Assembly: GCF_003018115.1 (NCBI RefSeq)
Contig: NZ_CP027457.1
Origin: Escherichia coli
GTDB lineage: Bacteria; Pseudomonadota; Gammaproteobacteria; Enterobacterales; Enterobacteriaceae
Strand: one strand, 5' to 3'
DNA length: 64,000 bases
Shown: piece by piece, positions 2,064-57,979 of the stretch
Position numbering within the stretch: the stretch's first letter is position 1
Layout: each line of letters begins with the position of its first letter
Translations under genes and position numbers: made by a program
Notes under the pieces: model-generated
What the model was told of the DNA's origin: nothing
Seen by the model: only the letters and a program-made list of their open reading frames with translations
Databases searched by the model: none

Positions 2064-2903
2064 ATGAAAGACAATCCGCTGATCTCAATCTATATGCCGA
2101 CCTGGAACCGCCAACAACTGGCGATTCGGGCGATAAAATCGGTCCTGCGCCAGGACTACAGCAACTGGGAGATGATCATCGTGGATGATTGCTCCACCTC
2201 CTGGGAACAACTGCAACAGTACGTCACCGCCCTCAACGATCCGCGTATTACCTACATTCACAACGACATTAACAGCGGGGCGTGCGCGGTACGTAACCAG
2301 GCGATTATGCTGGCGCAAGGGGAATACATTACCGGGATCGATGACGATGATGAATGGACGCCCAACCGCCTGAGCGTCTTCCTCGCCCATAAACAGCAAC
2401 TGGTCACTCACGCCTTTTTGTACGCTAACGACTACGTATGCCAGGGAGAAGTTTATTCCCAACCGGCAAGCTTACCACTGTATCCCAAATCGCCGTACTC
2501 ACGCCGCCTGTTCTATAAACGCAATATCATTGGCAATCAGGTTTTTACCTGGGCGTGGCGTTTCAAAGAGTGCTTGTTCGATACCGAACTGAAAGCAGCA
2601 CAGGATTACGACATCTTCCTGCGGATGGTGGTGGAGTATGGCGAACCGTGGAAAGTGGAAGAGGCGACGCAGATCCTGCATATCAATCACGGTGAAATGC
2701 AGATCACCTCGTCACCGAAAAAATTCTCCGGGTACTTCCACTTTTACCGCAAGCACAAAGATAAATTTGACCGTGCAAGCAAAAAATATCAGCTGTTTAC
2801 CCTCTACCAGATCCGCAATAAACGTATGACCTGGCGCACTTTGCTGACGCTGCTTTCGGTGCGTAACGGCAAACGTCTGGCTGATGGTATTCGGGGGCGC
2901 TAA
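2064..2903 (+). CDS. wcaA: Colanic acid glycosyltransferase (GT2)
   Basis: 279 aa ORF, position and sequence match WcaA. Confidence 0.85.
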   Translation: MKDNPLISIYMPTWNRQQLAIRAIKSVLRQDYSNWEMIIVDDCSTSWEQLQQYVTALNDPRITYIHNDINSGACAVRNQAIMLAQGEYITGIDDDDEWTPNRLSVFLAHKQQLVTHAFLYANDYVCQGEVYSQPASLPLYPKSPYSRRLFYKRNIIGNQVFTWAWRFKECLFDTELKAAQDYDIFLRMVVEYGEPWKVEEATQILHINHGEMQITSSPKKFSGYFHFYRKHKDKFDRASKKYQLFTLYQIRNKRMTWRTLLTLLSVRNGKRLADGIRGR

Positions 2904-22352: not shown

Positions 22353-22724
22353 ATGAATAAGATAATAGTTGATCTTGACGGTACTTTAACTGAGGAAGAT
22401 ACAAATGATTATACTAAAGTTAAACCAAAACTAAAAGTTGTTAAAAAATTGTATGAATTTAAAAAAATGGGATTCAGTATTGTAATAATGACAGCAAGGA
22501 ATATGCGAACATTTGATGGTAATATTGGAAAGATTAATATACATACACTTCCTGTAATCATTGACTGGCTTAATGAAAATAATATCCCGTACGATGAAGT
22601 TATTGTGGGGAAGCCATGGTGCGGTAATAAGGGATTTTATGTTGATGATCGGGCACTAAGGCCTTCTGAATTTGCAAGATTAAATCTTCAAGAGATAAAC
22701 GAATTATTTGATAAGGATAAATAA
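22353..22724 (+). CDS. HAD-superfamily phosphatase (small, subfamily IIIC-like)
   Basis: ORF 22275..22724 trimmed to MNKIIVDLDGTLT, the HAD motif I DxDGT; longer upstream start rejected because it would run through the ops element; AT-rich. Confidence 0.6.
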   Translation: MNKIIVDLDGTLTEEDTNDYTKVKPKLKVVKKLYEFKKMGFSIVIMTARNMRTFDGNIGKINIHTLPVIIDWLNENNIPYDEVIVGKPWCGNKGFYVDDRALRPSEFARLNLQEINELFDKDK

Positions 22725-35495: not shown

Positions 35496-36100
35496 TCACT
35501 GATGCCGTTTACGCAGGTTCTCAATCACCGTCGTTAAATCCAGATCCTGATCCTGCAACAACACCAGCAGGTGATACATCAAGTCAGATGCCTCGTTGGT
35601 CAGCTCAAAGCGGTCATGTACCGTTGCTGCCAGCGCAGTTTCCACCCCTTCTTCCCCCACTTTCTGCGCAATGCGCTTGGTGCCGCTGGCATACAGTTTG
35701 GCGGTATAGGAGGTTTCCGGGTCGGCAGATTTGCGCTCGGCGAGCAGTTGTTCCAGTTGATACAGGAACAGCCACTGGTGAGCGGTGTTGCCGAAGCAGC
35801 TGCTGGTGCCTTTGTGGCAGGTCGGGCCGATGGGATTCGCCAGCACTAATAAAGTGTCGTTGTCGCAGTCCGGCGCAATACTCACTACGTTGAGGAAATT
35901 GCCCGACGTTTCGCCTTTGGTCCACAGTCGCTGTTTAGTGCGCGAGAAGAAGGTGACTTTGCCGCTTTCGATGGTTTTGTCTAAGGCTTCCGGGTTCATA
36001 TAGCCCAGCATTAACACTTCGCCGGATACAGCGTGTTGCACAATCACCGGCATCAGTCCGTCGGTTTTTTCCCAGTCCAGTTCGCGACGTTGTTGTTCTG

Positions 36101-36107
<7 letters not shown>
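35496..36107 (-). CDS. hisI: Bifunctional phosphoribosyl-AMP cyclohydrolase / phosphoribosyl-ATP pyrophosphatase
   Basis: 203 aa; last gene of the his operon. Confidence 0.95.
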
Positions 36108-38185
<2,078 letters not shown>

Positions 38186-38186
<1 letters not shown>

Positions 38187-39252
38187 TACAGCACTCCTTT
38201 CGACGAGGGCAGGGTGTCGCCTTCCACGCGGATGGCCTGGCGCAGGGTGCGACCAAAGGCTTTGAACAGGCTCTCTACACGGTGGTGATCGTTTTTACCT
38301 TTGGTTTTCAGGTGTAGCGTCACGCCCATGGTGTAAGAGAGCGAACGGAAGAAGTGCTCGATCATTTCAGTGCTGAGATCGCCCACGCGCTGGTAGGTAA
38401 ATTCAGCTTTATATTCCAGGTGCGGGCGACCAGAGATATCCAGTGCACAGCGGGCAAGGCATTCGTCCATCGGCAGCACAAAACCAAAGCGGCAAATACC
38501 GCGTTTGTCGCCAAGAGCAATTTTTAATGCTTCGCCCAGCGCCAGGCCGGTATCTTCGACGGTGTGGTGATCGTCGATATAGAGGTCGCCTTTAACGTTG
38601 ATTTCCATCCGGAAACCGCCGTGGGTGGCGATCTGATCCAGCATGTGATCAAAGAATCCAACGCCGGTATTAATCTTGCTGCCACCTTCACGATCCAGCC
38701 ACACCTGGACGTCAATTTGCGTCTCTTTGGTGTTGCGCACTACATGGGCGTAACGGTCTCGTTTAGTGAGTTGCTCGCCAATCATTGGCCAGTTCAGGGT
38801 TTCGCGGTCGTAGCGTAAACCATTAATACCCATGTTTTCAGCCAGTTGAATATCGGTCGCGCGATCGCCAATCACATAACTGTTGGCGCGATCCATCGCT
38901 TGCTCAGCGAGATAACGCTCCACCAGTTTTACTTTCGGCTTACGGCAGTCGCACTCATCGGCGGGCAGGTGCGGACAAATCAGCACTTCATCAAACTGCA
39001 CGCCTTGTGAGGTGAAGATCTGCATCATCAGGTTGTGTGGGCCATCGAAATCCGCCTGCGGGAAACTTTGTGTTCCCAGACCATCCTGATTAGTGATCAT
39101 CACCGGCTTGTAGCCCGCTTTTTGCAGCTTCAGCAGCTCCGGGATCACGCCAGGTTCAAAGGCGAGTTTGTCAAAACGGTCCACCTGAAAATCACTCGGC
39201 GGTTCGCTAATCAGGGTTCCATCGCGATCGATAAAAAGATACTTCTGACTCA

Positions 39253-39253
<1 letters not shown>
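38186..39253 (-). CDS. hisB: Bifunctional histidinol-phosphatase / imidazoleglycerol-phosphate dehydratase
   Basis: 355 aa; [17 protein letters not shown] motif at the N-terminus. Confidence 0.95.
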
Positions 39254-41624
<2,371 letters not shown>

Positions 41625-41629
41625 GGCGA

Positions 41630-42529
41630 TCACTCCATCATTTTCTCAATCGGCAGGACCAGGATTGAACTGGCTCCCAGCGCTTTCAGTTTTTCCATCG
41701 TTTCCCAGAACAGGGTTTCGCTACTCACCATGTGCATCGCTACGCGCTGTTGATCACCTGCCAGCGGCAGAATAGTTGGGCGTTCGGCACCTGGCAGCAG
41801 GGCGATGACTTCATCCAGACGTTCAGTCGGTGCGTGCATCATGATGTATTTTGATTCGCGCGCCTGGATCACGCCCTGAATACGGGTCAGCAGCTTGTCG
41901 ATCAGTTGCTGTTTAGATTCTTCCATTTCGCCATCGCGCTGGATCAGGCAGGCTTTCGAGCGGTAGATAACTTCGACTTCGCGCAGGCCGTTAGCTTCCA
42001 GCGTGGCACCGGTGGAAACCAGATCGCAAATCGCATCCGCCAGTCCGGCGCGCGGGGCGACTTCAACAGAACCGTTCAGTAAGCAGGATTTAAAAGAGAT
42101 GCCTTTCTGGTCGAGATAACGCTTGAGCAGGTGAGGATAAGAGGTGGCGATACGTTTACCGTTTAAGGAGAGCGGACCGTCCCAGGCTTCATCAACCGGC
42201 GTTGCCAGCGAAAGGCGGCAGCCGCCGAAATCCAGTCGACGCAGGGTAAAGTAGCGCGGATCTTCACCCTGGGCTCGGCGGTTAAGCAGCTCTTCTTCCA
42301 GCACGTTTTCGCCGATAATCCCAAGGTCTACCACGCCGTCCATTACCAGACCGGGAATGTCGTCGTCACGCACGCGCAGAATATCAATCGGCATGTTTTC
42401 TGCCATCGCGATCAGGCGCTGGGTGTGAAGATTGATTTTAATGCCACAGCGCGCCAGCAATTCGCGTGAGTCATCACTTAAACGGCCGGATTTCTGCATA
42501 GCTATGCGTAAACGAGTGTTGTCTGTCAT
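41630..42529 (-). CDS. hisG: ATP phosphoribosyltransferase
   Basis: ORF 41630..42568 trimmed to [15 protein letters not shown] (299 aa). Confidence 0.95.
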
Positions 42530-42577
42530 TTTCTTATTCCTCTTTAAACCTGTCTGAACCGTTATCAACCGCGCAAT

Positions 42578-42610
42578 AAAAAAGCCCCCGGAAGGTGATC
42601 TTCCGGGGGC
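42578..42610 (-). terminator. his attenuator terminator hairpin
   Basis: Minus strand reads gcccccggaag atcac cttccgggggc followed by a U-run, between hisL and hisG. Confidence 0.85.
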
Positions 42611-42674
42611 TTTCTCATGCGTTCATGCACCACTGGAAGATCTGAATGTCTTCCAGCACACATCGCCTGAAAGA

Positions 42675-42725
42675 CTAGTCAGGATGATGGTGATGATGGT
42701 GGTGTTTAAATTGAACGCGTGTCAT
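42675..42725 (-). CDS. hisL: his operon leader peptide, 16 aa with seven consecutive His codons
   Basis: Minus strand atg aca cgc gtt caa ttt aaa cac cac cat cat cac cat cat cct gac tag = MTRVQFKHHHHHHHPD. Confidence 0.95.
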   Translation of the reverse strand: MTRVQFKHHHHHHHPD

Positions 42726-42764
42726 AAAAGTCTCTGTGAATGTTTATTCAACTGATGTCTTTTA

Positions 42765-42793
42765 ACCTAAACCACTTTCACGTTAGAAAGCAA
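42765..42793 (-). promoter_or_regulatory. Candidate his promoter (TTGCTT -35, 17 bp spacer, TTAGGT -10)
   Basis: Hexamers read on the minus strand upstream of hisL; exact -10 assignment uncertain. Confidence 0.45.
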
Positions 42794-42975
42794 GGGCTTT
42801 TTTATATATTTTATGGCGATGGATTTGTTTAATGAATGAGCGGGGAAAGGAGGGGGCTAAGAGGAGTGTCCCCTAACCTGACGGCACCCAAAATAGCGAA
42901 ACCTGGATTTTTCGTCTCACTGACAATGTCTTGATCTACAGACTAATTAATAAATAGTTAATTAACGCCTATCAT

Positions 42976-42993
42976 TGTACAATGAACTGTACA
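42976..42993 (+). promoter_or_regulatory. Tandem TGTACA palindromes, candidate YefM-YoeB operator
   Basis: tgtacaatgaactgtaca sits 15 bp upstream of the yefM start codon. Confidence 0.7.
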
Positions 42994-43008
42994 AAAGAGG
43001 AGATTGAA

Positions 43009-43260
43009 ATGCGTACAATTAGCTACAGCGAAGCGCGCCAGAATTTGTCGGCAACAATGATGAAAGCCGTTGAAGATCATGCCCCGATCCTTATTACTCG
43101 TCAGAATGGAGAGGCTTGTGTTCTGATGTCACTCGAAGAATACAACTCGCTGGAAGAGACGGCTTATCTACTGCGCTCCCCCGCTAACGCCCGGAGATTG
43201 ATGGACTCAATCGATAGCCTGAAATCAGGCAAAGGAACGGAAAAGGACATTATTGAGTGA
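43009..43260 (+). CDS. yefM: Antitoxin YefM (Phd/YefM family)
   Basis: ORF 42982..43260 trimmed to [14 protein letters not shown] (83 aa). Confidence 0.9.
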
Positions 43261-43511
43261 AACTAATCTGGTCTGAGGAGTCATGGGATGATTATCTGTA
43301 CTGGCAGGAAACAGATAAGCGAATTGTTAAAAAGATCATTGAACTTATCAAAGATACCCGCAGAACACCATTTGAAGGTAAGGGGAAGCCAGAACCCCTG
43401 AAGCATAATTTGTCAGGCTTCTGGTCCCGACGCATTACAGAGGAGCACCGTCTGGTATACGCGGTTACCGACGATTCACTGCTCATTGCAGCATGTCGTT
43501 ATCATTATTGA
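43257..43511 (+). CDS. yoeB: Toxin YoeB, ribosome-dependent mRNA interferase (RelE/ParE superfamily)
   Basis: 84 aa; ATGA overlap with yefM. Confidence 0.9.
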
Positions 43512-43593
43512 ACAGATTCATTCATAGAATGAATTGTCAGTTTTGATACGCTAGCGTAGCCTTATAGATCTAAGGTGTATCAGGAGATAACGG

Positions 43594-44418
43594 ATGAAAA
43601 AGGTCGCAATTGTCGGGTTAGGGTGGTTAGGCATGCCGCTGGCGATGTCACTTTCAGCGCGAGGCTGGCAAGTCACCGGGAGTAAAACCACACAAGATGG
43701 TGTCGAAGCGGCCCGAATGAGTGGCATTGATAGCTATCTGCTTCGCATGGAGCCTGAGTTAGTTTGCGATTCTGACGATCTGGATGCCCTGATGGATGCC
43801 GATGCGCTGGTCATTACGCTTCCGGCACGTCGTAGCGGCCCCGGCGATGAGTTCTATTTACAAGCGGTACAAGAGTTAGTGGATAGCGCGCTGGCCCATC
43901 GTATTCCCCGAATTATTTTTACCAGCTCGACGTCTGTCTATGGCGACGCGCAAGGCACGGTCAAAGAAACTACCCCGCGTAATCCGGTAACCAACAGTGG
44001 ACGAGTATTAGAAGAACTCGAAGACTGGCTGCACAATTTACCTGGTACTTCGGTCGATATTCTGCGTCTTGCGGGTCTTGTCGGACCGGGACGTCATCCC
44101 GGACGCTTCTTTGCCGGAAAAACCGCGCCTGATGGTGAACATGGTGTTAATTTAGTCCATTTAGAAGATGTTATTGGCGCTATCACTCTGTTGTTACAGG
44201 CACCTAAAGGCGGACACATCTATAATATATGTGCGCCAGCTCACCCTGCGCGTAATGTTTTCTATCCGCAGATGGCCCGTTTACTGGGGCTGGAGCCTCC
44301 GCAGTTCAGAAATAGTCTGGACAGCGGCAAAGGTAAGATTATTGATGGCAGTCGGATTTGTAATGAACTGGGATTTGAATACCAGTATCCCGATCCGCTG
44401 GTAATGCCGCTGGAGTAA
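43594..44418 (+). CDS. yeeZ: NAD-dependent epimerase/dehydratase family protein
   Basis: 274 aa; N-terminal Rossmann motif KVAIVGLGWLG. Confidence 0.8.
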   Translation: MKKVAIVGLGWLGMPLAMSLSARGWQVTGSKTTQDGVEAARMSGIDSYLLRMEPELVCDSDDLDALMDADALVITLPARRSGPGDEFYLQAVQELVDSALAHRIPRIIFTSSTSVYGDAQGTVKETTPRNPVTNSGRVLEELEDWLHNLPGTSVDILRLAGLVGPGRHPGRFFAGKTAPDGEHGVNLVHLEDVIGAITLLLQAPKGGHIYNICAPAHPARNVFYPQMARLLGLEPPQFRNSLDSGKGKIIDGSRICNELGFEYQYPDPLVMPLE

Positions 44419-44463
44419 ACGACCACGCCAGCAGGACGCCGCATGCACTGCAAGGGGGCGTGT

Positions 44464-45393
44464 ATGAAACCACTGCTGGATGTGTTGATGATCCTCGATG
44501 CCTTAGAAAAAGAAGGCAGTTTTGCGGCGGCGTCGGCCAAACTCTATAAGACGCCGTCCGCTCTGAGTTACACCGTTCACAAGCTGGAAAGCGACCTTAA
44601 TATTCAATTGCTTGATCGTAGCGGTCACCGCGCTAAATTCACCCGTACCGGAAAAATGTTATTAGAGAAAGGGCGGGAAGTTCTGCATACCGTGCGAGAA
44701 CTGGAAAAGCAGGCGATCAAACTGCATGAAGGCTGGGAAAACGAGCTGGTGATTGGCGTGGACGACACGTTTCCTTTTTCTCTGCTTGCGCCACTGATTG
44801 AAGCTTTTTATCAACATCATAGCGTGACGCGCCTGAAGTTTATCAATGGCGTACTCGGTGGTTCCTGGGATGCCCTGACTCAGGGGCGAGCGGATATTAT
44901 TGTTGGCGCGATGCATGAGCCACCATCTTCCAGTGAGTTTGGTTTCTCGCGGTTGGGCGATCTGGAACAAGTCTTTGCGGTCGCGCCTCATCATCCGCTA
45001 GCCCAGGAAGAAGAGCCGTTAAACCGTCGTATCATTAAGCGATATCGGGCGATTGTGGTGGGAGACACTGCGCAGGCAGGCGCTTCTACGGCCTCACAAC
45101 TTCTCGACGAACAAGAAGCCATTACCGTTTTCGATTTTAAAACCAAGCTGGAGCTGCAAATTAGCGGCCTCGGCTGCGGCTATTTACCCCGTTATCTGGC
45201 GCAACGTTTTCTCGATAGTGGCGCGTTAATCGAGAAGAAAGTGGTCGCCCAAACTCTCTTTGAACCCGTCTGGATTGGCTGGAATGAACAGACCGCAGGG
45301 CTTGCCAGCGGCTGGTGGCGGGATGAAATTTTAGCAAATAGTGCGATCGCCGGTGTTTATGCAAAATCTGATGACGGAAAATCAGCCATTTAA
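44464..45393 (+). CDS. yeeY: LysR-family transcriptional regulator
   Basis: ORF 44443..45393 trimmed to MKPLLDV (309 aa); HTH at the N-terminus. Confidence 0.8.
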   Translation: MKPLLDVLMILDALEKEGSFAAASAKLYKTPSALSYTVHKLESDLNIQLLDRSGHRAKFTRTGKMLLEKGREVLHTVRELEKQAIKLHEGWENELVIGVDDTFPFSLLAPLIEAFYQHHSVTRLKFINGVLGGSWDALTQGRADIIVGAMHEPPSSSEFGFSRLGDLEQVFAVAPHHPLAQEEEPLNRRIIKRYRAIVVGDTAQAGASTASQLLDEQEAITVFDFKTKLELQISGLGCGYLPRYLAQRFLDSGALIEKKVVAQTLFEPVWIGWNEQTAGLASGWWRDEILANSAIAGVYAKSDDGKSAI

Positions 45394-45659
45394 AGAAAAA
45401 TTATTATGACAAGCCTCTCATTCTCTTGTCATTTCCCCCCCATTTAGGCACAATGCGCCGCTGTCAAAAAATGACTAAAAACCGACGTTTCATCAGCGTC
45501 GGTTATTTTTTGCTTCAAACCAATCATTCATACCAAGAGGCCGGGCTTCGTACCGGATAGATATTTACTAAAAATCGACAGTTGTTGTCGCTGAGGAATC
45601 CAAAAAAATGGGGCAATTTTTTGCTTACGCGACGGTTATCACCGTAAAGGAGAATGACC

Positions 45660-47018
45660 ATGTCGCATAACGTTACTCCAAACACCTCTCGCGTGGAATT
45701 GCGTAAAACGCTTACGTTAGTTCCGGTTGTAATGATGGGTCTTGCCTATATGCAGCCGATGACGCTGTTTGATACTTTTGGTATCGTTTCAGGCCTCACG
45801 GATGGTCATGTGCCGACAGCCTATGCGTTCGCATTGATTGCGATCCTGTTTACGGCTCTGAGCTACGGGAAGCTGGTTCGCCGCTATCCTTCTGCTGGCT
45901 CTGCATACACTTACGCCCAGAAATCCATTAGCCCGACTGTCGGCTTTATGGTGGGTTGGTCTTCTCTGCTCGACTATCTGTTCGCGCCGATGATCAACAT
46001 TCTGCTGGCGAAAATCTATTTTGAAGCTCTGGTGCCTTCCATCCCATCGTGGATGTTTGTGGTGGCGCTGGTGGCCTTTATGACCGCCTTTAACCTGCGT
46101 AGTCTGAAATCCGTAGCGAACTTCAACACTGTAATCGTCGTGTTGCAGGTAGTGCTGATCGCGGTGATTCTGGGCATGGTTGTTTATGGCGTATTTGAAG
46201 GTGAAGGCGCTGGTACGCTGGCGAGCACTCGTCCGTTCTGGTCTGGCGATGCGCATGTTATCCCGATGATTACCGGGGCGACAATCCTGTGCTTCTCCTT
46301 TACCGGCTTTGACGGCATCAGCAACCTGTCGGAAGAAACCAAAGATGCAGAGCGCGTTATCCCGCGTGCGATTTTCCTGACCGCGCTGATTGGCGGCATG
46401 ATCTTCATCTTTGCAACTTACTTCCTGCAGCTGTACTTCCCGGATATCTCTCGCTTTAAAGATCCGGATGCGTCACAGCCTGAAATCATGCTGTATGTTG
46501 CGGGTAAAGCGTTCCAGGTTGGCGCGCTGATCTTCTCCACCATTACCGTACTGGCGTCTGGTATGGCGGCGCACGCAGGCGTAGCGCGTCTGATGTACGT
46601 AATGGGTCGTGACGGCGTATTCCCGAAAAGCTTCTTCGGTTATGTACACCCGAAATGGCGTACTCCGGCGATGAACATCATCCTGGTTGGCGCGATTGCC
46701 CTGCTGGCAATCAACTTCGACCTGGTAATGGCTACAGCGCTGATTAACTTTGGTGCGTTGGTGGCGTTCACCTTCGTTAACCTGTCGGTCATCTCGCAGT
46801 TCTGGATCCGTGAGAAGCGTAATAAGACGCTGAAAGATCACTTCCAGTATCTGTTCCTGCCGATGTGTGGTGCGCTGACTGTTGGTGCGCTGTGGGTTAA
46901 CCTGGAAGAAAGCTCAATGGTTCTGGGTCTGATCTGGGCTGCTATCGGTCTGATTTACCTGGCTTGCGTCACCAAGAGCTTCCGTAACCCGGTTCCGCAG
47001 TACGAAGACGTAGCATAA
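45660..47018 (+). CDS. plaP: Putrescine importer (APC family amino acid/polyamine permease)
   Basis: 452 aa from MSHNVTPN; polytopic membrane protein. Confidence 0.85.
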
Positions 47019-47196
47019 TCATCTTTTCTAATAATTAACCGGAGTCGAATGAACATTTGGCTCCGGTTTTTTTATTCTTTTTTATCGAAATCCTCATTAA
47101 TAACCATTTGTTCTAATTTAGAGAATTTGGTTATTGGTCTGCATTCCACCAGTCATGAATAATTTCCCCATTAACATTCATCTGGTTAATTAATTT

Positions 47197-48255
47197 ATGT
47201 TTTCAATGATATTAAGCGGGCTAATTTGTGGTGCTCTGCTGGGATTTGTCATGCAGCGTGGGCGTTTTTGCCTGACTGGTGGTTTTCGCGATATGTATAT
47301 CGCGAAAAATAATCGCATGTTTTACGCCTTGCTGATTGCAATTTCGATACAAAGCGTGGGGGTTTTTGCGTTAATTCAGGCAGGCCTACTGACTTACGAA
47401 GCCGGGGCGTTCCCGTGGCTTGGTACTGTTATAGGTGGGTATATCTTCGGGCTGGGAATTGTTCTGGCGGGTGGATGTGCCACCGGGACCTGGTATCGCG
47501 CGGGTGAGGGATTGATCGGCAGTTGGATCGCGCTTTTCACTTATATGGTGATGAGTGCGGTGATGCGTTCTCCACACGCCAGTGGTTTAAATCAAACCTT
47601 GCAGCACTACAGTACTGAACATAACTCTATTGCTGAGACTTTTAATTTGTCTGTGTGGCCGTTGGTTGCCGTATTGCTGGTGATAACGCTCTGGGTGGTG
47701 ATGAAAGAGTTGAAGAAGCCAAAACTCAAAGTCGCGACCTTACCGCCGCGCCGAACTGGGATCGCTCATATTCTGTTTGAAAAACGCTGGCATCCCTTTG
47801 TCACTGCTGTACTCATCGGTTTGATTGCGCTTTTAGCCTGGCCCCTGAGTGAAGCAACCGGACGTATGTTTGGGTTAGGCATCACTTCCCCAACGGCCAA
47901 TATTCTGCAATTTCTGGTCGCGGGTGACGTGAAATACATTAACTGGGGCGTTTTCCTGGTGTTAGGGATCTTCGTGGGGTCATTTATTGCAGCCAAAGCG
48001 AGCCGTGAGTTCCGCGTTCGCGCAGCTGATGCACAAACAACAGTACGTAGCGGGTTAGGTGGTGTACTGATGGGCTTCGGTGCCAGTATTGCAGGTGGTT
48101 GCTCTATCGGTAATGGACTGGTTATGACTGCAATGATGACCTGGCAGGGCTGGATTGGCCTTGTATTTATGATTCTCGGAGTCTGGACTGCGTCCTGGCT
48201 TGTGTATGTTCGACCGCAGCGTAAGGCGCGACTGGCAACTGCTGCGGCAAATTAA
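47197..48255 (+). CDS. yeeE: Thiosulfate transporter YeeE/TsuA family membrane protein
   Basis: 352 aa; two conserved Cys-containing repeats (GRFCLTGG, GGCSIGNG). Confidence 0.8.
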   Translation: MFSMILSGLICGALLGFVMQRGRFCLTGGFRDMYIAKNNRMFYALLIAISIQSVGVFALIQAGLLTYEAGAFPWLGTVIGGYIFGLGIVLAGGCATGTWYRAGEGLIGSWIALFTYMVMSAVMRSPHASGLNQTLQHYSTEHNSIAETFNLSVWPLVAVLLVITLWVVMKELKKPKLKVATLPPRRTGIAHILFEKRWHPFVTAVLIGLIALLAWPLSEATGRMFGLGITSPTANILQFLVAGDVKYINWGVFLVLGIFVGSFIAAKASREFRVRAADAQTTVRSGLGGVLMGFGASIAGGCSIGNGLVMTAMMTWQGWIGLVFMILGVWTASWLVYVRPQRKARLATAAAN

Positions 48256-48268
48256 GTAAGGTGTAAAG

Positions 48269-48496
48269 ATGGCGATTAAAAAGCTGGATGTGGTGACGCA
48301 GGTCTGTCCGTTTCCACTCATAGAAGCAAAAGCAGCACTGGCAGAAATGGCCAGCGGCGATGAGTTGGTAATTGAGTTTGATTGCACCCAGGCAACAGAA
48401 GCAATCCCACAATGGGCGGCAGAAGAAGGACATGCCATCACCGATTATCAGCAGATTGGCGATGCTGCGTGGAGCATCACCGTTCAAAAAGCCTGA
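48269..48496 (+). CDS. yeeD: TusA-like sulfur carrier protein (YeeD/TsuB)
   Basis: 75 aa; CPFP motif in VVTQVCPFPLIEAK. Confidence 0.8.
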   Translation: MAIKKLDVVTQVCPFPLIEAKAALAEMASGDELVIEFDCTQATEAIPQWAAEEGHAITDYQQIGDAAWSITVQKA

Positions 48497-48538
48497 CCCA
48501 ACATTGTCCTCCGCCGTATCAGCGGCGGAGGCTTCAAA

Positions 48539-49966
48539 CTAGACGATCTCTTCCGCGTACTGCCAAAGCGCTTTTAACAGCGCCACTTTTTCTTTATCGT
48601 CGGCATACTGCTGCGCCAGCATCTGAATCTCTTCTGCATAGCCTTGTAAAAACTCGGGTGTGAATACCTGGCGGCGGTGCTCCAGCCAACGTTGCTGCTC
48701 GGCATAATCCAGCGTCCCTGGGAAGTTGCGTGCCCGATAATTGAACAACAGCTTTTCAATCCGTTTATCAACAAAAGTGATATCCAGTGCCGGTAAATTA
48801 CGCGGCTCGGTTTCCAGCACAATTTTCATTGCTGCACGATCGGCGTCACTGAAAAAGCCGTTATAAAGCTGTGTATCCACGTTATCTGAAGGCGTAAACG
48901 GTTCGGCTTCCGCGAATATCGCCACCACTTTTTCGCGCACTTGCGGATTTTCACGCAGAATTTTCAGGTTATCGAGGCAATGCTGACGATTAATTCCCAG
49001 TCGGTCGGCATCTTCCGGGCGTAGCGTATTCGCCTGGGCCAGCACCGGACATTTATTGATATGCACCAGCTTAACCGGAACGGCGGCGTTATCGCCAAGA
49101 TCGGTTTTTGCGGTATATAAACGCTCGCGTAATGTGTCGCTATCCAGTTCCAGTAATGGCGAAATGTCTCCTGCCAAATCCACCATAATTACGGCATTGC
49201 GATTTTCAGGATGCCACGCCAGCGGTGCCACCCAGCTGGTATTGCCGCGCCATGCCCCAAACATTCCGGAAACGTGCACCAGGGGTTTCATCTGCGGAAC
49301 ATCAATCAACGCCATCAGTTTGTGTTTATTACGATGGGTAAAGAGATATTCAAACAGACGTGGCTGACGCGTTTTTACCAGTTTCGCCATCGCAATAGTG
49401 GCGTACACATCAGCCATCGCATCGTGGGCGTTGCTATGTTCAATACCATTCGCTTTGGTTAAATGCTCAAGGCGAAAGCTCGGTAGACCGTCATCATTTT
49501 CAGGCCAGTTTATTCCTTCCGGGCGCAGGGCATAACAGGCACGCATAACATCCAGTAAATCCCAGCGCGAGTTATCATGCTGCCAGCTCCAGGCGTAAGG
49601 ATCGTAGAAATTACGATAAAAAATGTTGCGTGTGACTTCGTCGTCGAAACGCACATTGTTGTAGCCCAGAATACAGGTCTTCGGTACGGTAAAAAGCGAG
49701 TGAATACGGGCGGCAAACGCGGCTTCGTTTTCTCCTTTCGCCCGTGCTTCCTGCGGGGTAATACCGGTAATTAATACGGCTCCAGGCTGGGGTAAATAGT
49801 CATCCGCAGGCTTGCAGTAAAAGACTTCGGGTTCGCCGATGACATTGAATTCGCTATCGGTGCGAATGGCTGCGAACTGTGCAGGGCGATCTAACGCGGG
49901 GTGCGTGCCAAAGGTTTCGTAATCGTGAAACAAAAAGGTAGATTGTTGCTTACCGTCATTCATCAT
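48539..49966 (-). CDS. sbcB: Exodeoxyribonuclease I
   Basis: ORF 48539..50038 trimmed to MMNDGKQQSTFLFHDYETFG (475 aa). Confidence 0.95.
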   Translation of the reverse strand: MMNDGKQQSTFLFHDYETFGTHPALDRPAQFAAIRTDSEFNVIGEPEVFYCKPADDYLPQPGAVLITGITPQEARAKGENEAAFAARIHSLFTVPKTCILGYNNVRFDDEVTRNIFYRNFYDPYAWSWQHDNSRWDLLDVMRACYALRPEGINWPENDDGLPSFRLEHLTKANGIEHSNAHDAMADVYATIAMAKLVKTRQPRLFEYLFTHRNKHKLMALIDVPQMKPLVHVSGMFGAWRGNTSWVAPLAWHPENRNAVIMVDLAGDISPLLELDSDTLRERLYTAKTDLGDNAAVPVKLVHINKCPVLAQANTLRPEDADRLGINRQHCLDNLKILRENPQVREKVVAIFAEAEPFTPSDNVDTQLYNGFFSDADRAAMKIVLETEPRNLPALDITFVDKRIEKLLFNYRARNFPGTLDYAEQQRWLEHRRQVFTPEFLQGYAEEIQMLAQQYADDKEKVALLKALWQYAEEIV

Positions 49967-50174
49967 TAGGTTAAATCCGTTATTTCTACTGTCTGCCAGA
50001 GTATCAAATATCACCGTGCTAATCAGCTTTAGCGCCACAATTTGGCAGCGAGTGGCAACAGATCATGTCAGATAAAAATGAGAGGGTAGTCACATTTTCT
50101 TGCACTTTATTCCAGCCAGTTCATAAGTATTTCCGTAAAAAGAACAGCTATTTGAAACTCCTGAGGGTTTGCTG

Positions 50175-51341
50175 TTGAAACGCCGTCTTATTATTGCTGC
50201 TTCTTTGTTCGTTTTTAACTTATCGTCTGGTTTTGCGGCGGAAAACATTCCTTTTTCACCTCAGCCTCCTGAGATTCATGCCGGATCCTGGGTATTGATG
50301 GATTACACCACCGGTCAGATCCTCACCGCGGGTAATGAGCATCAACAGCGCAATCCCGCCAGCCTGACAAAGCTGATGACGGGTTATGTCGTGGATCGCG
50401 CTATCGATAGTCATCGCATTACGCCAGACGATATTGTCACCGTGGGGCGTGATGCGTGGGCGAAAGATAATCCGGTGTTTGTCGGTTCTTCACTGATGTT
50501 TTTGAAAGAGGGCGATCGCGTATCGGTACGTGATTTAAGCCGTGGTTTAATTGTGGATTCCGGAAATGACGCTTGTGTTGCACTGGCTGACTATATTGCC
50601 GGTGGGCAACGGCAGTTTGTTGAAATGATGAACAACTATGCCGAGAAGCTGCATCTCAAGGATACGCATTTTGAAACAGTGCATGGCCTGGATGCGCCAG
50701 GTCAGCATAGCTCGGCTTATGATTTAGCTGTGCTTTCTCGCGCTATCATCCACGGCGAGCCCGAGTTTTATCATATGTACAGTGAGAAAAGCCTCACCTG
50801 GAACGGTATCACCCAGCAAAACCGTAACGGGTTATTGTGGGATAAAACCATGAATATTGACGGCCTGAAAACGGGTCATACTTCTGGTGCCGGGTTTAAT
50901 CTCATTGCTTCGGCTGTAGATGGGCAGCGTCGTCTCATTGCAGTGGTAATGGGTGCTGACAGCGCAAAAGGTCGTGAGGAAGAGGCAAGAAAATTACTGC
51001 GTTGGGGGCAACAAAACTTTACTACGGTGCAAATTTTGCACCGTGGGAAAAAGGTCGGTACGGAACGCATCTGGTATGGCGATAAAGAAAATATCGCCCT
51101 GGGAACAGAACAAGAGTTCTGGATGGTACTACCGAAAGCCGAAATTCCACATATCAAAGCCAAATATACCCTTGATGGTAAAGAGCTCACCGCGCCAATT
51201 AGCGCCCATCAGCGGGTAGGGGAAATTGAACTTTACGACCGTGATAAACAGGTGGCGCACTGGCCGCTGGTTACCCTGGAATCTGTCGGGGAAGGCAGCA
51301 TGTTTTCTCGCCTGAGTGATTATTTCCACCATAAGGCCTGA
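50175..51341 (+). CDS. dacD: D-alanyl-D-alanine carboxypeptidase (PBP6b)
   Basis: ORF 50169..51341 has no ATG start; TTG at 50175 follows gaggg; SLTK active-site motif present. Confidence 0.85.
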   Translation: MKRRLIIAASLFVFNLSSGFAAENIPFSPQPPEIHAGSWVLMDYTTGQILTAGNEHQQRNPASLTKLMTGYVVDRAIDSHRITPDDIVTVGRDAWAKDNPVFVGSSLMFLKEGDRVSVRDLSRGLIVDSGNDACVALADYIAGGQRQFVEMMNNYAEKLHLKDTHFETVHGLDAPGQHSSAYDLAVLSRAIIHGEPEFYHMYSEKSLTWNGITQQNRNGLLWDKTMNIDGLKTGHTSGAGFNLIASAVDGQRRLIAVVMGADSAKGREEEARKLLRWGQQNFTTVQILHRGKKVGTERIWYGDKENIALGTEQEFWMVLPKAEIPHIKAKYTLDGKELTAPISAHQRVGEIELYDRDKQVAHWPLVTLESVGEGSMFSRLSDYFHHKA

Positions 51342-51425
51342 CCTTTCTTTTGCAGCAGACTGGCAGGAGTGCGAGTCTGCTCGCATAATCAACACTCATT
51401 CCTTGTGGTTTTAATTTTGCAACTA

Positions 51426-51445
51426 TACTGTATATAAAAACAGTA
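51426..51445 (+). promoter_or_regulatory. LexA (SOS) box upstream of sbmC
   Basis: tactgtatataaaaacagta matches the CTGT-N8-ACAG consensus, 15 bp upstream of the sbmC start. Confidence 0.75.
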
Positions 51446-51459
51446 TTAATGGAGGCGTC

Positions 51460-51933
51460 ATGAACTACGAGATTAAGCAGGAAGATAAACGTACCGTTGC
51501 AGGTTTCCATCTCGTTGGCCCGTGGGAACAGACGGTAAAGAAAGGCTTTGAGCAGTTGATGATGTGGGTAGATAGCAAAAATATTGTGCCGAAGGAGTGG
51601 GTTGCTGTCTATTACGACAATCCAGATGAAACACCCGCCGAAAAATTACGCTGCGACACCGTCGTGACGGTGCCGGGTTACTTTACGCTTCCCGAAAACA
51701 GTGAGGGCGTCATTCTGACAGAAATTTCAGGTGGTCAGTATGCGGTGGCGGTAGCTCGTGTAGTCGGTGATGATTTTGCTAAACCCTGGTATCAGTTCTT
51801 TAATAGCCTCTTGCAGGACAGTGCTTATGAAATGTTACCAAAGCCCTGCTTCGAGGTTTATTTGAACAATGGCGCGGAAGATGGGTACTGGGATATCGAA
51901 ATGTATGTTGCGGTGCAGCCAAAACATCACTAA
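51460..51933 (+). CDS. sbmC: DNA gyrase inhibitor SbmC/GyrI
   Basis: 157 aa; [24 protein letters not shown]. Confidence 0.9.
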
Positions 51934-52131
51934 TTCATCTCAGGGCGGTGTGTTAACGCGATGACCACTCTTTTTTTTGAAAGCGAAAAGAGTAAGATGC
52001 GCCTTTCAATTTTTTCGCTCCTGCCGGGAAATTACACTGTTCCCGGTTTGTCCGTCGGATATTTCAGAGGCGCCCCTTCTGGCCGACAGATGAGTTATGA
52101 GCGCTTTTAATCTTCATTACGGAGTTTCTGC

Positions 52132-53190
52132 GTGCGTGCCGATAAGTCATTAAGCCCGTTTGAAATCCGGGTATACCGCCATTACCGCATTGTGCATGGT
52201 ACTCGGGTCGCGCTGGCATTCCTGCTCACTTTTCTCATTATCCGCCTGTTTACTATCCCGGAAAGTACCTGGCCGCTGGTCACCATGGTGGTGATTATGG
52301 GGCCAATCTCGTTCTGGGGTAACGTTGTCCCTCGCGCCTTCGAACGTATTGGCGGTACGGTGTTGGGTTCGATTTTAGGTCTTATCGCTCTGCAACTGGA
52401 GTTAATCTCGTTACCGCTGATGTTAGTCTGGTGCGCGGCGGCTATGTTTCTTTGCGGTTGGCTGGCGCTGGGCAAGAAACCGTATCAAGGTTTATTGATT
52501 GGGGTGACGCTGGCAATTGTTGTGGGTTCCCCGACAGGTGAAATTGATACGGCGTTATGGCGAAGCGGCGATGTGATCCTCGGCTCTTTACTGGCAATGT
52601 TGTTTACCGGTATCTGGCCACAACGGGCGTTCATCCACTGGCGTATTCAACTGGCGAAAAGTCTGACCGAGTATAATCGGGTCTATCAATCTGCATTCTC
52701 ACCGAACTTACTCGAACGCCCACGTCTGGAAAGCCATCTACAAAAACTCTTGACCGATGCCGTGAAAATGCGTGGGCTGATTGCGCCCGCCAGCAAAGAA
52801 ACTCGTATTCCAAAATCGATATATGAAGGTATCCAGACCATTAACCGCAATCTGGTTTGTATGCTGGAGTTGCAAATCAATGCATACTGGGCCACGCGCC
52901 CCAGCCATTTCGTGTTATTGAACGCGCAAAAACTTCGTGATACCCAGCACATGATGCAGCAAATACTGCTGAGCCTTGTTCATGCGCTGTACGAAGGTAA
53001 TCCGCAGCCGGTTTTTGCCAATACGGAAAAATTGAACGATGCTGTGGAAGAGCTGCGTCAGTTGCTCAATAACCACCATGACCTGAAGGTTGTGGAAACA
53101 CCAATCTATGGTTATGTGTGGCTGAACATGGAAACGGCGCATCAGCTTGAGTTGCTATCGAATCTGATTTGCCGGGCCTTGCGCAAATAA
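52132..53190 (+). CDS. yeeA: FUSC-family inner membrane protein
   Basis: 352 aa; hydrophobic N-terminal half. Confidence 0.8.
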   Translation: MRADKSLSPFEIRVYRHYRIVHGTRVALAFLLTFLIIRLFTIPESTWPLVTMVVIMGPISFWGNVVPRAFERIGGTVLGSILGLIALQLELISLPLMLVWCAAAMFLCGWLALGKKPYQGLLIGVTLAIVVGSPTGEIDTALWRSGDVILGSLLAMLFTGIWPQRAFIHWRIQLAKSLTEYNRVYQSAFSPNLLERPRLESHLQKLLTDAVKMRGLIAPASKETRIPKSIYEGIQTINRNLVCMLELQINAYWATRPSHFVLLNAQKLRDTQHMMQQILLSLVHALYEGNPQPVFANTEKLNDAVEELRQLLNNHHDLKVVETPIYGYVWLNMETAHQLELLSNLICRALRK

Positions 53191-53361
53191 TTCCTGAACT
53201 TCAGAATCATCTTGCTGCTGCTTCGATTCAGCAAGGATAAAGGGTATGATAGTGAAAAGGGATAAAAGCATTGTCATCTGCGGCAGCTATGAGTAATGTT
53301 GGCCCTAACGAATAGCGGTTGCTTAAACGAATCCGACTCTCACATTATCAGGGGTATAAAA

Positions 53362-53691
53362 ATGGAAACTACCAAGCCTTCATTCCAGGACGTACTGGAA
53401 TTTGTTCGTCTGTTCCGTCGTAAGAACAAACTGCAACGTGAAATTCAGGACGTTGAGAAAAAGATCCGTGACAACCAGAAGCGCGTCCTGTTGCTGGACA
53501 ACCTGAGTGATTACATCAAGCCGGGGATGAGCGTTGAAGCAATCCAGGGCATCATCGCTAGCATGAAAGGTGACTATGAAGATCGCGTTGACGATTACAT
53601 CATCAAAAATGCCGAGCTCTCCAAAGAACGCCGCGATATCTCCAAAAAGCTGAAAGCTATGGGCGAAATGAAAAACGGCGAAGCGAAGTAA
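53362..53691 (+). CDS. yeeX: DUF496-family protein YeeX
   Basis: ORF 53296..53691 trimmed to [14 protein letters not shown] (109 aa). Confidence 0.8.
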
Positions 53692-54149
53692 TTCCTGTTT
53701 TATTCAATGAGGGTTGCCCGGCAACCCTCATTGCTCATTGATTCTTTTCTGTGTATCACAGTCATCATTCCCATCTGATAACCTATCGAAATTAGCGACA
53801 GACATCTTCTGTATGAAGCAAGGCAAAAAGTTCTGCAACTCTATTGTTATTAACCGCACTGGTTACTAACACGTTGTGCGATCCAGCTTCCCGTAACCAA
53901 ACTTTCACCAAAGATATTTCTTCCATGCTGGCTAAATCTGCTTTGGTGACTACTCCAATGATCGGACGTTAACACGAGGAAGTCTGGCTATTCCACAATG
54001 CCATCTTCTTTCGTAATGGATTGAGAATGCTGGATTTTTAATTATATTACGCGCAGTATTAATCGTGTAAATGTTTTGCGGTCAGCAACGGTGGGGGATC
54101 CATTGTTCTGTTCAATGAATACCATCATACAATTGAATCAGGAGTCGGT

Positions 54150-54695
54150 ATGATGATTTTGGTGACGGGGGGCGCACGGAGCGGGAAGAGTCGCCACGCA
54201 GAGGCGCTTATTGGAGACTCTTCACAGGTTCTGTATATCGCCACCTCGCAAATCCTTGATGATGAGATGGCTGCACGGATAGAACATCATCGGCAAGGCC
54301 GCCCGGCGCACTGGCGCACGGTGGAGCGCTGGCAACATCTTGATGAATTAATTCATGCAGACATTAACCCGCATGAAGCTGTGTTGCTGGAATGCGTTAC
54401 CACAATGGTGACTAATCTGTTGTTTGATTATGGCGGAGATAAAGACCCTGATGAATGGGATTATCAGGCGATGGAACAGGCGATTAATGCTGAGATTCAG
54501 TCGTTGATTGCTGCCTGCCAACGTTGCCCCGCAAAGGTTGTATTAGTGACTAACGAAGTGGGAATGGGGATTGTGCCGGAGAGTCGTCTGGCACGTCATT
54601 TTCGTGATATTGCCGGGCGGGTAAATCAGCAGCTGGCCGCTGCGGCGAATGAAGTGTGGCTGGTGGTTTCGGGTATTGGAGTAAAAATCAAATGA
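54150..54695 (+). CDS. cobU: Adenosylcobinamide kinase / adenosylcobinamide-phosphate guanylyltransferase
   Basis: 181 aa; P-loop GGARSGKS. Confidence 0.9.
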
Positions 54696-55435
54696 GTAAA
54701 TTATTTTGGGCGATGCTCTCTTTTATTACGCGTCTGCCTGTGCCGCGTCGCTGGTCCCAGGGACTGGATTTCGAGCATTATTCTCGCGGTATTATTACTT
54801 TTCCTTTAATTGGATTATTGCTTGGCGCGATTAGCGGGCTGGTTTTCATGGTGCTGCAGGCATGGTGTGGCGTACCACTGGCGGCACTGTTTAGCGTGCT
54901 TGTGCTGGCGCTGATGACCGGGGGATTCCACCTGGACGGCCTCGCCGATACCTGTGATGGCGTATTTTCTGCACGTAGCCGCGATCGCATGTTGGAAATC
55001 ATGCGTGATAGCCGTTTAGGCACCCACGGCGGTCTGGCATTGATTTTTGTTGTACTGGCAAAGATTCTGGTGTTAAGCGAGTTGGCTCTGCGTGGCGAAC
55101 CGATCCTTGCATCGCTGGCGGCAGCATGTGCGGTCAGCCGCGGGACTGCCGCATTATTGATGTATCGTCATCGTTATGCCCGGGAAGAAGGGCTTGGCAA
55201 TGTATTCATTGGCAAAATTGATGGGCGACAAACCTGCGTCACACTCGGCTTGGCCGCTATTTTTGCTGCCGTATTATTGCCGGGTATGCATGGTGTGGCT
55301 GCTATGGTGGTGACGATGGTGGCGATTTTCATCCTCGGTCAGCTTCTCAAACGTACGCTGGGCGGGCAAACCGGCGATACGCTGGGAGCTGCTATAGAGC
55401 TTGGTGAACTGGTCTTCCTGCTGGCACTGCTATAA
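54692..55435 (+). CDS. cobS: Adenosylcobinamide-GDP ribazoletransferase (cobalamin synthase)
   Basis: ORF 54656..55435 trimmed to [11 protein letters not shown] (247 aa); ATGA overlap with cobU. Confidence 0.9.
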
Positions 55436-55446
55436 AGAGACGTGAC

Positions 55447-56526
55447 ATGCAAACACTTGCCGATTTACTGAATACGATCCCTGCTATCGATCCTGCCGCT
55501 ATGTCGCGTGCACAACGGCATATTGACGGGTTACTCAAACCTGTTGGTAGCCTTGGAAGGCTGGAGGCGCTTGCCATACAACTGGCAGGAATGCCGGGGT
55601 TGAATGGCATACCGCATGTGGGCAAAAAAGCGGTACTGGTTATGTGTGCCGATCACGGCGTCTGGGAGGAAGGGGTCGCTATTTCCCCAAAAGAAGTGAC
55701 AGCCATTCAGGCTGAAAATATGACCCGCGGAACAACCGGCGTGTGTGTGCTGGCAGCACAAGCGGGCGCTAACGTCCACGTAATTGATGTTGGTATTGAT
55801 AGTGCTGAGCCTATCCCCGGGCTTATCAACATGCGTGTCGCACGAGGTAGCGGCAATATTGCTTCAGCTCCGGCAATGAGTCGCCGTCAGGCTGAAAAGT
55901 TGCTTTTGGACGTCATATGTTATACGCGGGAGCTGGCAAAAAATGGTGTCACGCTGTTTTGTGTAGGTGAACTGGGGATGGCAAACACGACACCGGCAGC
56001 GGCAATAGTCAGCACAATCACTGGCCGGGATCCTGAAGAAGTGGTTGGGATTGGCGCAAACCTGCCAACAGATAAACTGGCTAATAAAATTAATGTTGTG
56101 CGCCGGGCGATTACGTTGAATCAACCAAATCCGCAGGATGGCGTTGATGTTCTGGCAAAAGTGGGTGGATTTGATTTGGTCGGAATGGCTGGCGTGATGT
56201 TAGGCGCTGCTTCCTGCGGTTTACCCGTGTTGCTGGATGGATTTCTTTCTTATGCTGCTGCGCTCGCAGCCTGCCAGATGTCTCCTGCAATCAAACCGTA
56301 TCTCATTCCTTCTCACCTGTCGGCAGAAAAAGGGGCGCGTATAGCGCTGTCGCATTTGGGGCTGGAGCCTTATCTCGATATGGAGATGCGTTTAGGTGAG
56401 GGGAGTGGCGCAGCTCTGGCGATGCCCATCATCGAAGCTGCCTGTGCGATATATAACAACATGGGCGAACTTGCTGCCAGTAATATTGTTCTACCGGGGA
56501 ATACGACTTCTGATTTGAACAGTTAA
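55447..56526 (+). CDS. cobT: Nicotinate-nucleotide:dimethylbenzimidazole phosphoribosyltransferase
   Basis: 359 aa. Confidence 0.9.
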
Positions 56527-56590
56527 AAACGAAAAGTCTGATAAAAGCTATACTTAACGGATAGCTTTCGCGACTTAGGAAAGGGACATG

Positions 56591-57523
56591 ATGCGTCGTG
56601 TAAATATTCTTTGCTCATTTGCTCTGCTTTTTGCCAGCCATACTAGCCTGGCGGTAACTTATCCATTACCTCCAGAGGGTAGCCGTTTAGTGGGGCAGTC
56701 GTTTACTGTAACTGTTCCTGATCACAATACCCAGCCGCTGGAGACTTTTGCCGCACAATACGGGCAAGGGTTAAGTAACATGCTGGAAGCGAACCCGGGC
56801 GCTGATGTTTTCTTGCCGAAGTCTGGCTCGCAACTCACCATTCCGCAGCAACTGATTTTGCCCGCCACTGTTCGTAAAGGGATTGTGGTTAACGTCGCTG
56901 AGATGCGTCTTTATTACTACCCACCAGACAGTAATACTGTGGAAGTCTTTCCTATTGGTATCGGCCAGGCTGGGCGAGAAACCCCGCGTAACTGGGTGAC
57001 TACCGTTGAACGTAAACAAGAAGCTCCAACCTGGACGCCAACGCCGAACACTCGGCGCGAATATGCGAAACGAGGGGAGAGTTTGCCCGCATTTGTTCCT
57101 GCGGGGCCCGATAATCCCATGGGGCTGTACGCGATTTATATTGGCAGGTTGTATGCCATCCACGGTACCAATGCCAATTTTGGTATTGGGCTCCGGGTAA
57201 GTCAGGGCTGTATTCGTCTGCGCAATGACGATATCAAATATCTGTTTGATAATGTTCCTGTTGGGACGCGTGTGCAAATTATCGACCAGCCAGTAAAATA
57301 CACCACTGAACCAGATGGCTCGAACTGGCTGGAAGTTCATGAGCCGCTGTCGCGCAATCGTGCAGAATATGAGTCTGACCGAAAAGTGCCATTGCCGGTA
57401 ACCCCATCTTTGCGGGCGTTTATCAACGGGCAAGAAGTTGATGTGAATCGCGCAAATGCTGCGTTGCAACGTCGATCGGGAATGCCTGTGCAAATTAGTT
57501 CTGGTTCAAGACAGATGTTTTAA
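56591..57523 (+). CDS. ldtA: L,D-transpeptidase (ErfK/YkuD family)
   Basis: 310 aa from [10 protein letters not shown]; signal peptide; catalytic-region motif [11 protein letters not shown]. Confidence 0.9.
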
Positions 57524-57549
57524 GAGCGTTGGTAATTAGAAAGCAAAAA

Positions 57550-57573
57550 GCCTGCTAGAAAGCAGGCTTTTTT
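57550..57573. terminator. Hairpin gcctgct agaa agcaggc with T-run, shared by convergent ldtA and tRNA-Asn
   Basis: Perfect 7 bp stem followed by T6 on the plus strand. Confidence 0.7.
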
Positions 57574-57578
57574 GAATT

Positions 57579-57654
57579 TGGCTCCTCTGACTGGACTCGA
57601 ACCAGTGACATACGGATTAACAGTCCGCCGTTCTACCGACTGAACTACAGAGGA
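57579..57654 (-). tRNA. asnV: tRNA-Asn (GUU anticodon)
   Basis: 76 nt; reverse complement reads TCCTCTGTAGTTCAGTCGGTAGAACGGCGGACTGTTAATCCGTATGTCACTGGTTCGAGTCCAGTCAGAGGAGCCA; gene name assigned from K-12 synteny. Confidence 0.95.
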
Positions 57655-57908
57655 ATCGTGTGAACGGGGCGCATATTAATGGCAGTGCATGGTGATGTCA
57701 AAGGGTGAAATGCATTTTTTTGTTTGTTTGCTGTCAATTTCAACAAAGTGATGAGATTTCAATCTTATTGGTAATGAACCATCGTGGTGCATACCCTCCT
57801 TTTATAGGGCAGGGGAACGCGACTGCTGGTGAAAAGAGCCAATGACGAATCTATCATAATCTCTTATTTGACAGTTGGTTAGCTTGTACATCAACGCCAA
57901 AATAAAAC

Positions 57909-57924
57909 TGGCAAGCATCTTGCA
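57909..57924 (+). promoter_or_regulatory. Sigma-54 (-24/-12) promoter candidate for nac
   Basis: TGGCAAGCATCTTGCA fits the TGGCAC-N5-TTGCW consensus, 56 bp upstream of the nac start. Confidence 0.65.
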
Positions 57925-57979
57925 GTCTGGTTGTAAGTAATGGCGGCACTTGGGCCGATTCTCAAAAACCGGAGGCAAC

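Follow-up and report, generated by a model that had tools for sequence, protein, structure and literature searches.

The segment between the histidine operon and yeeZ in the 64,000-nucleotide stretch of Escherichia coli DNA analysed here (the window) raises the question of whether its two small, overlapping reading frames are an intact yefM-yoeB toxin-antitoxin (TA) pair under native control, and whether that pair belongs, as the original prediction had it, to the conserved core genome. The first part can be answered with near certainty: the locus is the chromosomal E. coli yefM-yoeB type II TA operon, which is intact and retains its native control region, and no result contradicted that identification. 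What the analysis establishes is the sequence identity of each element with experimentally characterised elements of K-12. The molecular details of the system are already fully known, and it is among the best characterised of type II TA systems, its structures including crystal and ribosome-bound forms and its operator having been footprinted, so that the discovery value of the locus is small; YefM turnover is Lon-dependent, and the physiological role of chromosomal yefM-yoeB is debated. The gain is in annotation, which is confirmed at base resolution for the promoter, transcription start (+1), operator, true start codons and the overlap between the genes.

The antitoxin and transcriptional autorepressor gene, yefM, runs from an ATG on the plus strand (43009..43260) and encodes 83 residues, the length that had been predicted. 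All 83 are identical to those of the crystallised E. coli antitoxin (PDB 2A6Q chain A; 100% identity). The protein scores 96.8 bits against the Pfam profile PF02604 (Phd/YefM; cutoff 29.8) and 186.6 bits against the NCBIfam equivalog NF008499 (cutoff 121), the latter covering residues 1-83 of 83. From its identity with the characterised protein, this YefM would be expected to neutralise YoeB and to bind the operator (PMC1802561), and to be labile to Lon.

The second gene, yoeB, which encodes the ribosome-dependent mRNA endonuclease toxin, occupies 43257..43511 of the plus strand and starts with GTG. Its 84-residue product, again of the predicted length, is identical at 83 of 84 positions to the crystallised toxin (2A6Q_E; PDB entries 2A6Q, 2A6R, 2A6S, 4V8X and 6OXA), and scores 142.9 bits against Pfam PF06769 (cutoff 27) and 129.8 bits against the NCBIfam equivalog TIGR02116 (cutoff 51.8). 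In the structure of YoeB on the 70S ribosome, Glu46 is the general base and His83 the general acid, Arg65 and Tyr84 stabilise the transition state, and Arg59 and Glu63 also contact the A-site codon (PMC3814384). Loss of conserved catalytic residues, which had been named in advance as the finding that would speak against the assignment, is not seen in the translation: Glu46, Arg59, Glu63, Arg65, His83 and Tyr84 are all kept. Across a family alignment of 150 diverse representatives out of a 1.8-billion-protein library, these six catalytic or RNA-contacting residues are conserved in 103-147 homologues each, and Glu46, Arg65, His83 and Tyr84 in 107-147. At 98.8% identity to the characterised enzyme, this YoeB would probably cleave mRNA in a ribosome-dependent manner and arrest growth.

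The arrangement of the genes, antitoxin first and toxin second with overlapping stop and start codons, is that of a type II TA operon. The four shared nucleotides read GTGA, made up of the TGA of yefM and the GTG of yoeB, rather than the ATGA that had been proposed; K-12 has the same start and overlap. The K-12 genes (b2017/b4539), which are the system of the PDB entries listed above, lie at the same hisL-yeeZ locus and encode an identical YefM, and the promoter boxes, +1, ribosome-binding site and both operator sites (L and S, below) are likewise identical. The differences from K-12 comprise two synonymous changes in yefM, six nucleotide changes in yoeB, of which one is non-synonymous (N28I), and a few intergenic SNPs, e.g. 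A for C at -1 of the yefM ATG. RefSeq labels identical DNA yefM/yoeB in thousands of genomes.

The pair had been placed just downstream of the his promoter; it in fact lies upstream of the his operon, from which it is read divergently. The genes hisG (41630..42529) and hisL (42675..42725, transferred from collinear annotated genomes) and the His leader RNA (42576..42699; Rfam RF00514, 131.6 bits) are all on the minus strand, and 283 bp separate the start codons of hisL and yefM. K-12 has the same divergent layout, and early studies of the his promoter had come across a 'cryptic' divergent transcript (PMC1802561). Apart from the His leader, an Rfam scan of 42400..43700 gave nothing above threshold, the remaining sub-threshold matches being on the attenuator hairpin.

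The published yefM-yoeB promoter, pyy, has a -35 box TAGTTA, a 17-bp spacer, a -10 box TACAAT, a G at +1, the yefM ATG at +21 and an unused ATG at -7 (PMC1802561, PMC7730913). All of these are present on the plus strand of the window: the -35 box at 42955..42960 and, after a 17-bp spacer, the -10 box at 42978..42983 (PMC7730913), with +1 at G 42989, as placed by the yefM ATG at +21, a position which puts the unused ATG at 42982, as published (PMC1802561). A Shine-Dalgarno sequence, GAGGAG (42997..43002), lies 6 nt 5' of the yefM ATG, the separation also being 6 bp in the published description (PMC1802561).

Superimposed on the promoter are two TGTACA boxes (42976-42981 and 42988-42993), 16-33 bp ahead of the yefM ATG. 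The first is the centre of a perfect 14-bp palindrome, TCATTGTACAATGA (42972..42985), which contains the -10 box and is identical to the footprinted L site, the primary site for YefM (PMC1802561); the second is the core of the S site (42988..42993), which surrounds +1 and is 12 bp from L, centre to centre. The published description of YefM-YoeB operators asks for paired TGTACA boxes 12 bp apart centre to centre, no more than 80 bp from the yefM start, with the 5' box in an extended palindrome (PMC1802561); the boxes, their spacing, their distance from yefM and an L site reading TCATTGTACAATGA are all found here. Every promoter-operator element is letter for letter that of the K-12 region mapped by DNase-I footprinting and primer extension, and it is by identity to that mapped promoter that the operator can be said to overlap both the -10 box and +1. 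The proposal that the tandem TGTACA boxes at the promoter are an autorepression site is well supported by this identity with the footprinted K-12 operator, and they would be expected to act as such here.

It might be argued that the paired palindromes have arisen by chance, or that they are bound by a regulator of the divergent his operon that has nothing to do with yefM-yoeB, given that they lie in the his-yefM intergenic region and that their role in this strain is read from sequence. With just 10 TGTACA sites in the entire window, two of them exactly 12 bp apart are not a chance occurrence; a search of the 64 kb for TGTACA-N6-TGTACA gave a single match, where 0.08 would be expected even with one mismatch allowed, i.e. 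it is unique at an expectation of at most 0.08. Against a his regulator, the operator is about 230 bp from the start of the his leader, in a cassette that is absent from module-less strains with an intact his operon, and it accompanies yefM-yoeB on Salmonella and Citrobacter plasmids that are without his genes. Taken with the identity of the pair to the site footprinted with YefM and YefM-YoeB (PMC1802561), these observations leave either alternative with a negligible probability, and the palindromes are best regarded as the YefM-YoeB operator.

A generic sigma-70 scan proposed a different promoter, TTAATA-17-TATCAT (42947..42975). It was dropped, since it disagrees with the primer-extension map (TAGTTA-17-TACAAT, +1 at 42989), its -10 box (TATCAT) being 14-19 bp from the mapped start.

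An in-frame ATG at 42982..42984, 27 nt 5' of the true yefM start, leads mechanical ORF callers to report a product of 92 residues, and the ORF list for the window accordingly carries the yefM frame up to this codon. Were the antitoxin this 92-residue product, the TGTACA boxes would be coding sequence rather than promoter, but that is very hard to sustain. The ATG at 42982 lies within the operator at -7, i.e. upstream of the mapped transcription start at 42989, and the overexpressed YefM product begins at +21 (PMC1802561). The GAGGAG sequence stands 6 nt 5' of the ATG at 43009, with no comparable site 5' of that at 42982, and the 83-residue form is the one used by RefSeq and by the crystallised protein. 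The start of yefM is thus assigned to 43009.

Codons 2-3 of yefM (43012..43017) contain CGTACA (within GTACAAT), a third and imperfect copy of the operator core, exactly 24 bp from S centre to centre and so in phase with the 12-bp L-S spacing. In one plasmid homologue it is broken by a synonymous change (CGC), and it is probably a by-product of coding Met-Arg-Thr-Ile.

By identity with K-12 and from published work, this strain would be predicted to show binding, repression, neutralisation and RNase activity as follows. The weak sigma-70 promoter (TAGTTA, 17 bp, TACAAT) would start transcription at G 42989, giving a single mRNA from which YefM and then YoeB would be made, with the GTGA overlap likely favouring coupled translation. 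A YefM dimer would hold one YoeB by the C-terminal tail of one YefM chain, so keeping the toxin active site inactive. YefM alone would be expected to occupy the long palindrome over the -10 box, whereas the YefM-YoeB complex would bind more avidly and also to the short repeat over the start site (PMC1802561), with autorepression likely resulting from steric exclusion of RNA polymerase (PMC7730913). Depletion of YefM (by Lon proteolysis; heat is a reported trigger) would leave free dimeric YoeB to enter the ribosomal A site. There the toxin would cleave mRNA 3' of the second A-site codon nucleotide, Glu46 and His83 acting as the likely general base and general acid and the transition state being stabilised by Arg65 and Tyr84 (PMC3814384). 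Dimerisation raises the thermal stability of YoeB by about 20 C, a gain that has been connected with activity during heat stress (PMC6821326).

YoeB shares its RNase fold and A-site mRNA cleavage with other members of the RelE superfamily, including RelBE, YafQ and HigB, and weak profile matches to RelE/StbE, YafQ and ParE models were obtained. What sets YoeB apart from these relatives is its dimeric state and its Glu/His acid-base pair (PMC3814384, PMC6821326), together with an antitoxin of the Phd/YefM rather than the RelB fold. Another relative is axe-txe of the Enterococcus faecium plasmid pRUM, a homologous Phd/YefM-YoeB/Txe system with the same TGTACA L and S cores and the same -10 box, TACAAT (PMC7730913). 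In axe-txe, L is located in the promoter spacer and S partly over the -10 box, and the promoter (TTGCTT) is strong and poorly repressed (PMC7730913); by contrast, in the window L covers the -10 box and S the start site, as in K-12.

Among one-genome-per-species contigs the exact operator pattern was found only in Escherichia whittamii, the pattern being a strict one whose matches say little about the wider distribution of the module; E. whittamii has the exact operator and the same his-yefM-yoeB-yeeZ-yeeY synteny. Large plasmids of Salmonella enterica and Citrobacter, IncF-type ones among them, carry modules of 80-86% DNA identity with the same gene order, gene sizes, 4-nt overlap, CATTGTACAATGA core and -10 box; these modules differ from the chromosomal operon in their sequence and in lying among tra or type III secretion chaperone genes instead of beside his. 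The Citrobacter plasmid module is between traT and traD, and the Salmonella plasmid module adjoins the type III secretion chaperone genes. Positions 42973..42985 show no variation in E. whittamii or in three plasmid copies from Salmonella and Citrobacter; in the aligned upstream regions of the plasmid modules CATTGTACAATGA and the -10 box do not vary, and the S core is off by one base (TGAACA or AGTACA). An invariant L beside a variable S fits a role for L as the primary, high-affinity YefM site and for S as a secondary one, as has been shown biochemically (PMC1802561).

The yefM-yoeB module family is, accordingly, plasmid-borne as well as chromosomal in enterobacteria, the plasmid homologues (L008 1540..2042 and L009 1538..2040) having a conserved L operator. 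Three matches of 97-98% labelled as Escherichia plasmids were not used as evidence of mobility, since the records (0.39-4.8 Mb) look chromosomal. A search of phage sequences for the module, in distant mode, gave no phage record with it.

The second part of the question, whether the pair is a conserved core-genome module, gets no support as it was put: the pair is not strictly core. If a genome is scored as positive when it matches 80% or more of 42900..43560, 4211 of the 5426 complete E. coli genomes (77.6%) have the module, while about 1200 genomes match just the last 44 bases of that interval. Alignment of the window with K-12 and O157:H7 FRIK804 defines a presence/absence cassette of 653 bp (42864..43516), comprising the promoter, operator, yefM and yoeB; in FRIK804, about 220 bp of unrelated DNA (L001 about 2291..2510) stands in place of it. 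This filler allele is present at full length in 1197 genomes (22.1%), including O157:H7 and BL21(DE3), so that cassette and filler together account for 5408 of the 5426 genomes, and the 'core' label can be replaced by measured frequencies for the module and for a defined alternative allele. The filler contains a stretch, GCCGGATGCGGCGTGAATGCCTTATCTGG..., which we take to be REP-like. Another 739 genomes match the filler partially at best, at 80-90% identity, and those listed align to part of it, a pattern that fits a repeat family. The cassette/filler junctions showed no direct repeats. We take ST11 to be the sequence type that comprises O157:H7. That YoeB is missing from ST11 has already been published (PMC10790755).

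The G+C content of the cassette is 44.6%, compared with 55.1% for his and 51.8% for yeeZ-yeeY. The interval 42900..43560 is 100% identical to strain 2013C-4991, with SNPs beginning at 43692 in yeeZ; outside the module, the window is neither collinear nor identical with that strain, in which the O-antigen cluster is of the O80 family and a lambdoid prophage sits beside sbcB, and the annotation of 2013C-4991 was for this reason not carried over. The best full-length match to 36000..60000 among RefSeq complete E. coli genomes is 98.2%. These genome comparisons suggest a mosaic, recombining region beside the O-antigen/his hotspot. The O-antigen cluster of the window itself (22724..31414, between galF and gnd) differs from that of 2013C-4991.

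The one residue that separates this YoeB from the crystallised protein is residue 28, which is Ile rather than Asn (codon 43338..43340, with T at 43339). Asn28 is part of a hydrogen-bond network at the YoeB homodimer interface (PMC6821326); of the seven interface residues Trp5, Glu7, Trp10, Tyr13, Gln17, Asn28 and Arg35, the other six are kept. The change raises the possibility that, with an interface hydrogen bond lost, the toxin is attenuated or destabilised, being less thermostable or less active, and that the locus is decaying. Monomeric YoeB melts about 20 C lower than the dimer (PMC6821326), residue 28 is Asn in all five structurally characterised homologues shown and in 111 of the 150 diverse representatives, and the N28I allele is rare, only 90 of the 5426 complete E. 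coli genomes having an exact match to a 55-mer centred on 43339. However, an aliphatic residue occurs naturally at this position in 15 of the 150 representatives (Leu in 7, Ile in 4, Val in 4), the interface is described as mainly hydrophobic, and an engineered monomeric YoeB retains activity (PMC6821326). The catalytic residues, reading frames, promoter and operator are, moreover, all intact, and isolates with the allele come from a range of sources (human, chicken, bovine, river water), which argues against a one-off lesion. On balance, decay of the locus through N28I is unlikely, and the substitution is probably tolerated in this YoeB. It could have a modest effect on the stability of the YoeB dimer, such that stability or activity could differ from those of the K-12 toxin.

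A more speculative reading, which we consider doubtful, is that N28I is a naturally occurring variant that tunes a heat-responsive toxin, by altering how heat-stable the dimer is and so the temperature threshold for the persistence of free YoeB, and, as a separate matter, that the cassette and the REP-like filler are alternative alleles exchanged by recombination beside the O-antigen/his hotspot, rather than the locus being that of a core gene pair. The allele is, in any case, a small but testable lead for work on YoeB dimer stability.

Downstream of yoeB, also on the plus strand, are yeeZ (43594..44418; SDR/epimerase) and then yeeY, yoeI and plaP. The order in the window is the standard one, as befits an E. 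coli-like chromosome: colanic acid cluster-galF-O-antigen cluster-gnd-ugd-wzzB-his-yefM-yoeB-yeeZ...sbcB-dacD-cobUST-nac-cbl, with dacD-sbmC-yeeA-cobUST after sbcB. Directly 3' of the yoeB stop codon, on the plus strand, is an A+T-rich inverted repeat (43512..43544), ACAGATTCATTC-ATA-GAATGAATTGT, that is followed by TTTT; the segment 43495..43600 folds at -27 kcal/mol (z = -2.75). A terminator scan did not call the hairpin at 43512..43544, which has too few G-C pairs, and it is possibly a weak terminator of the yefM-yoeB operon. The right junction of the presence/absence cassette falls in the left arm of this hairpin.
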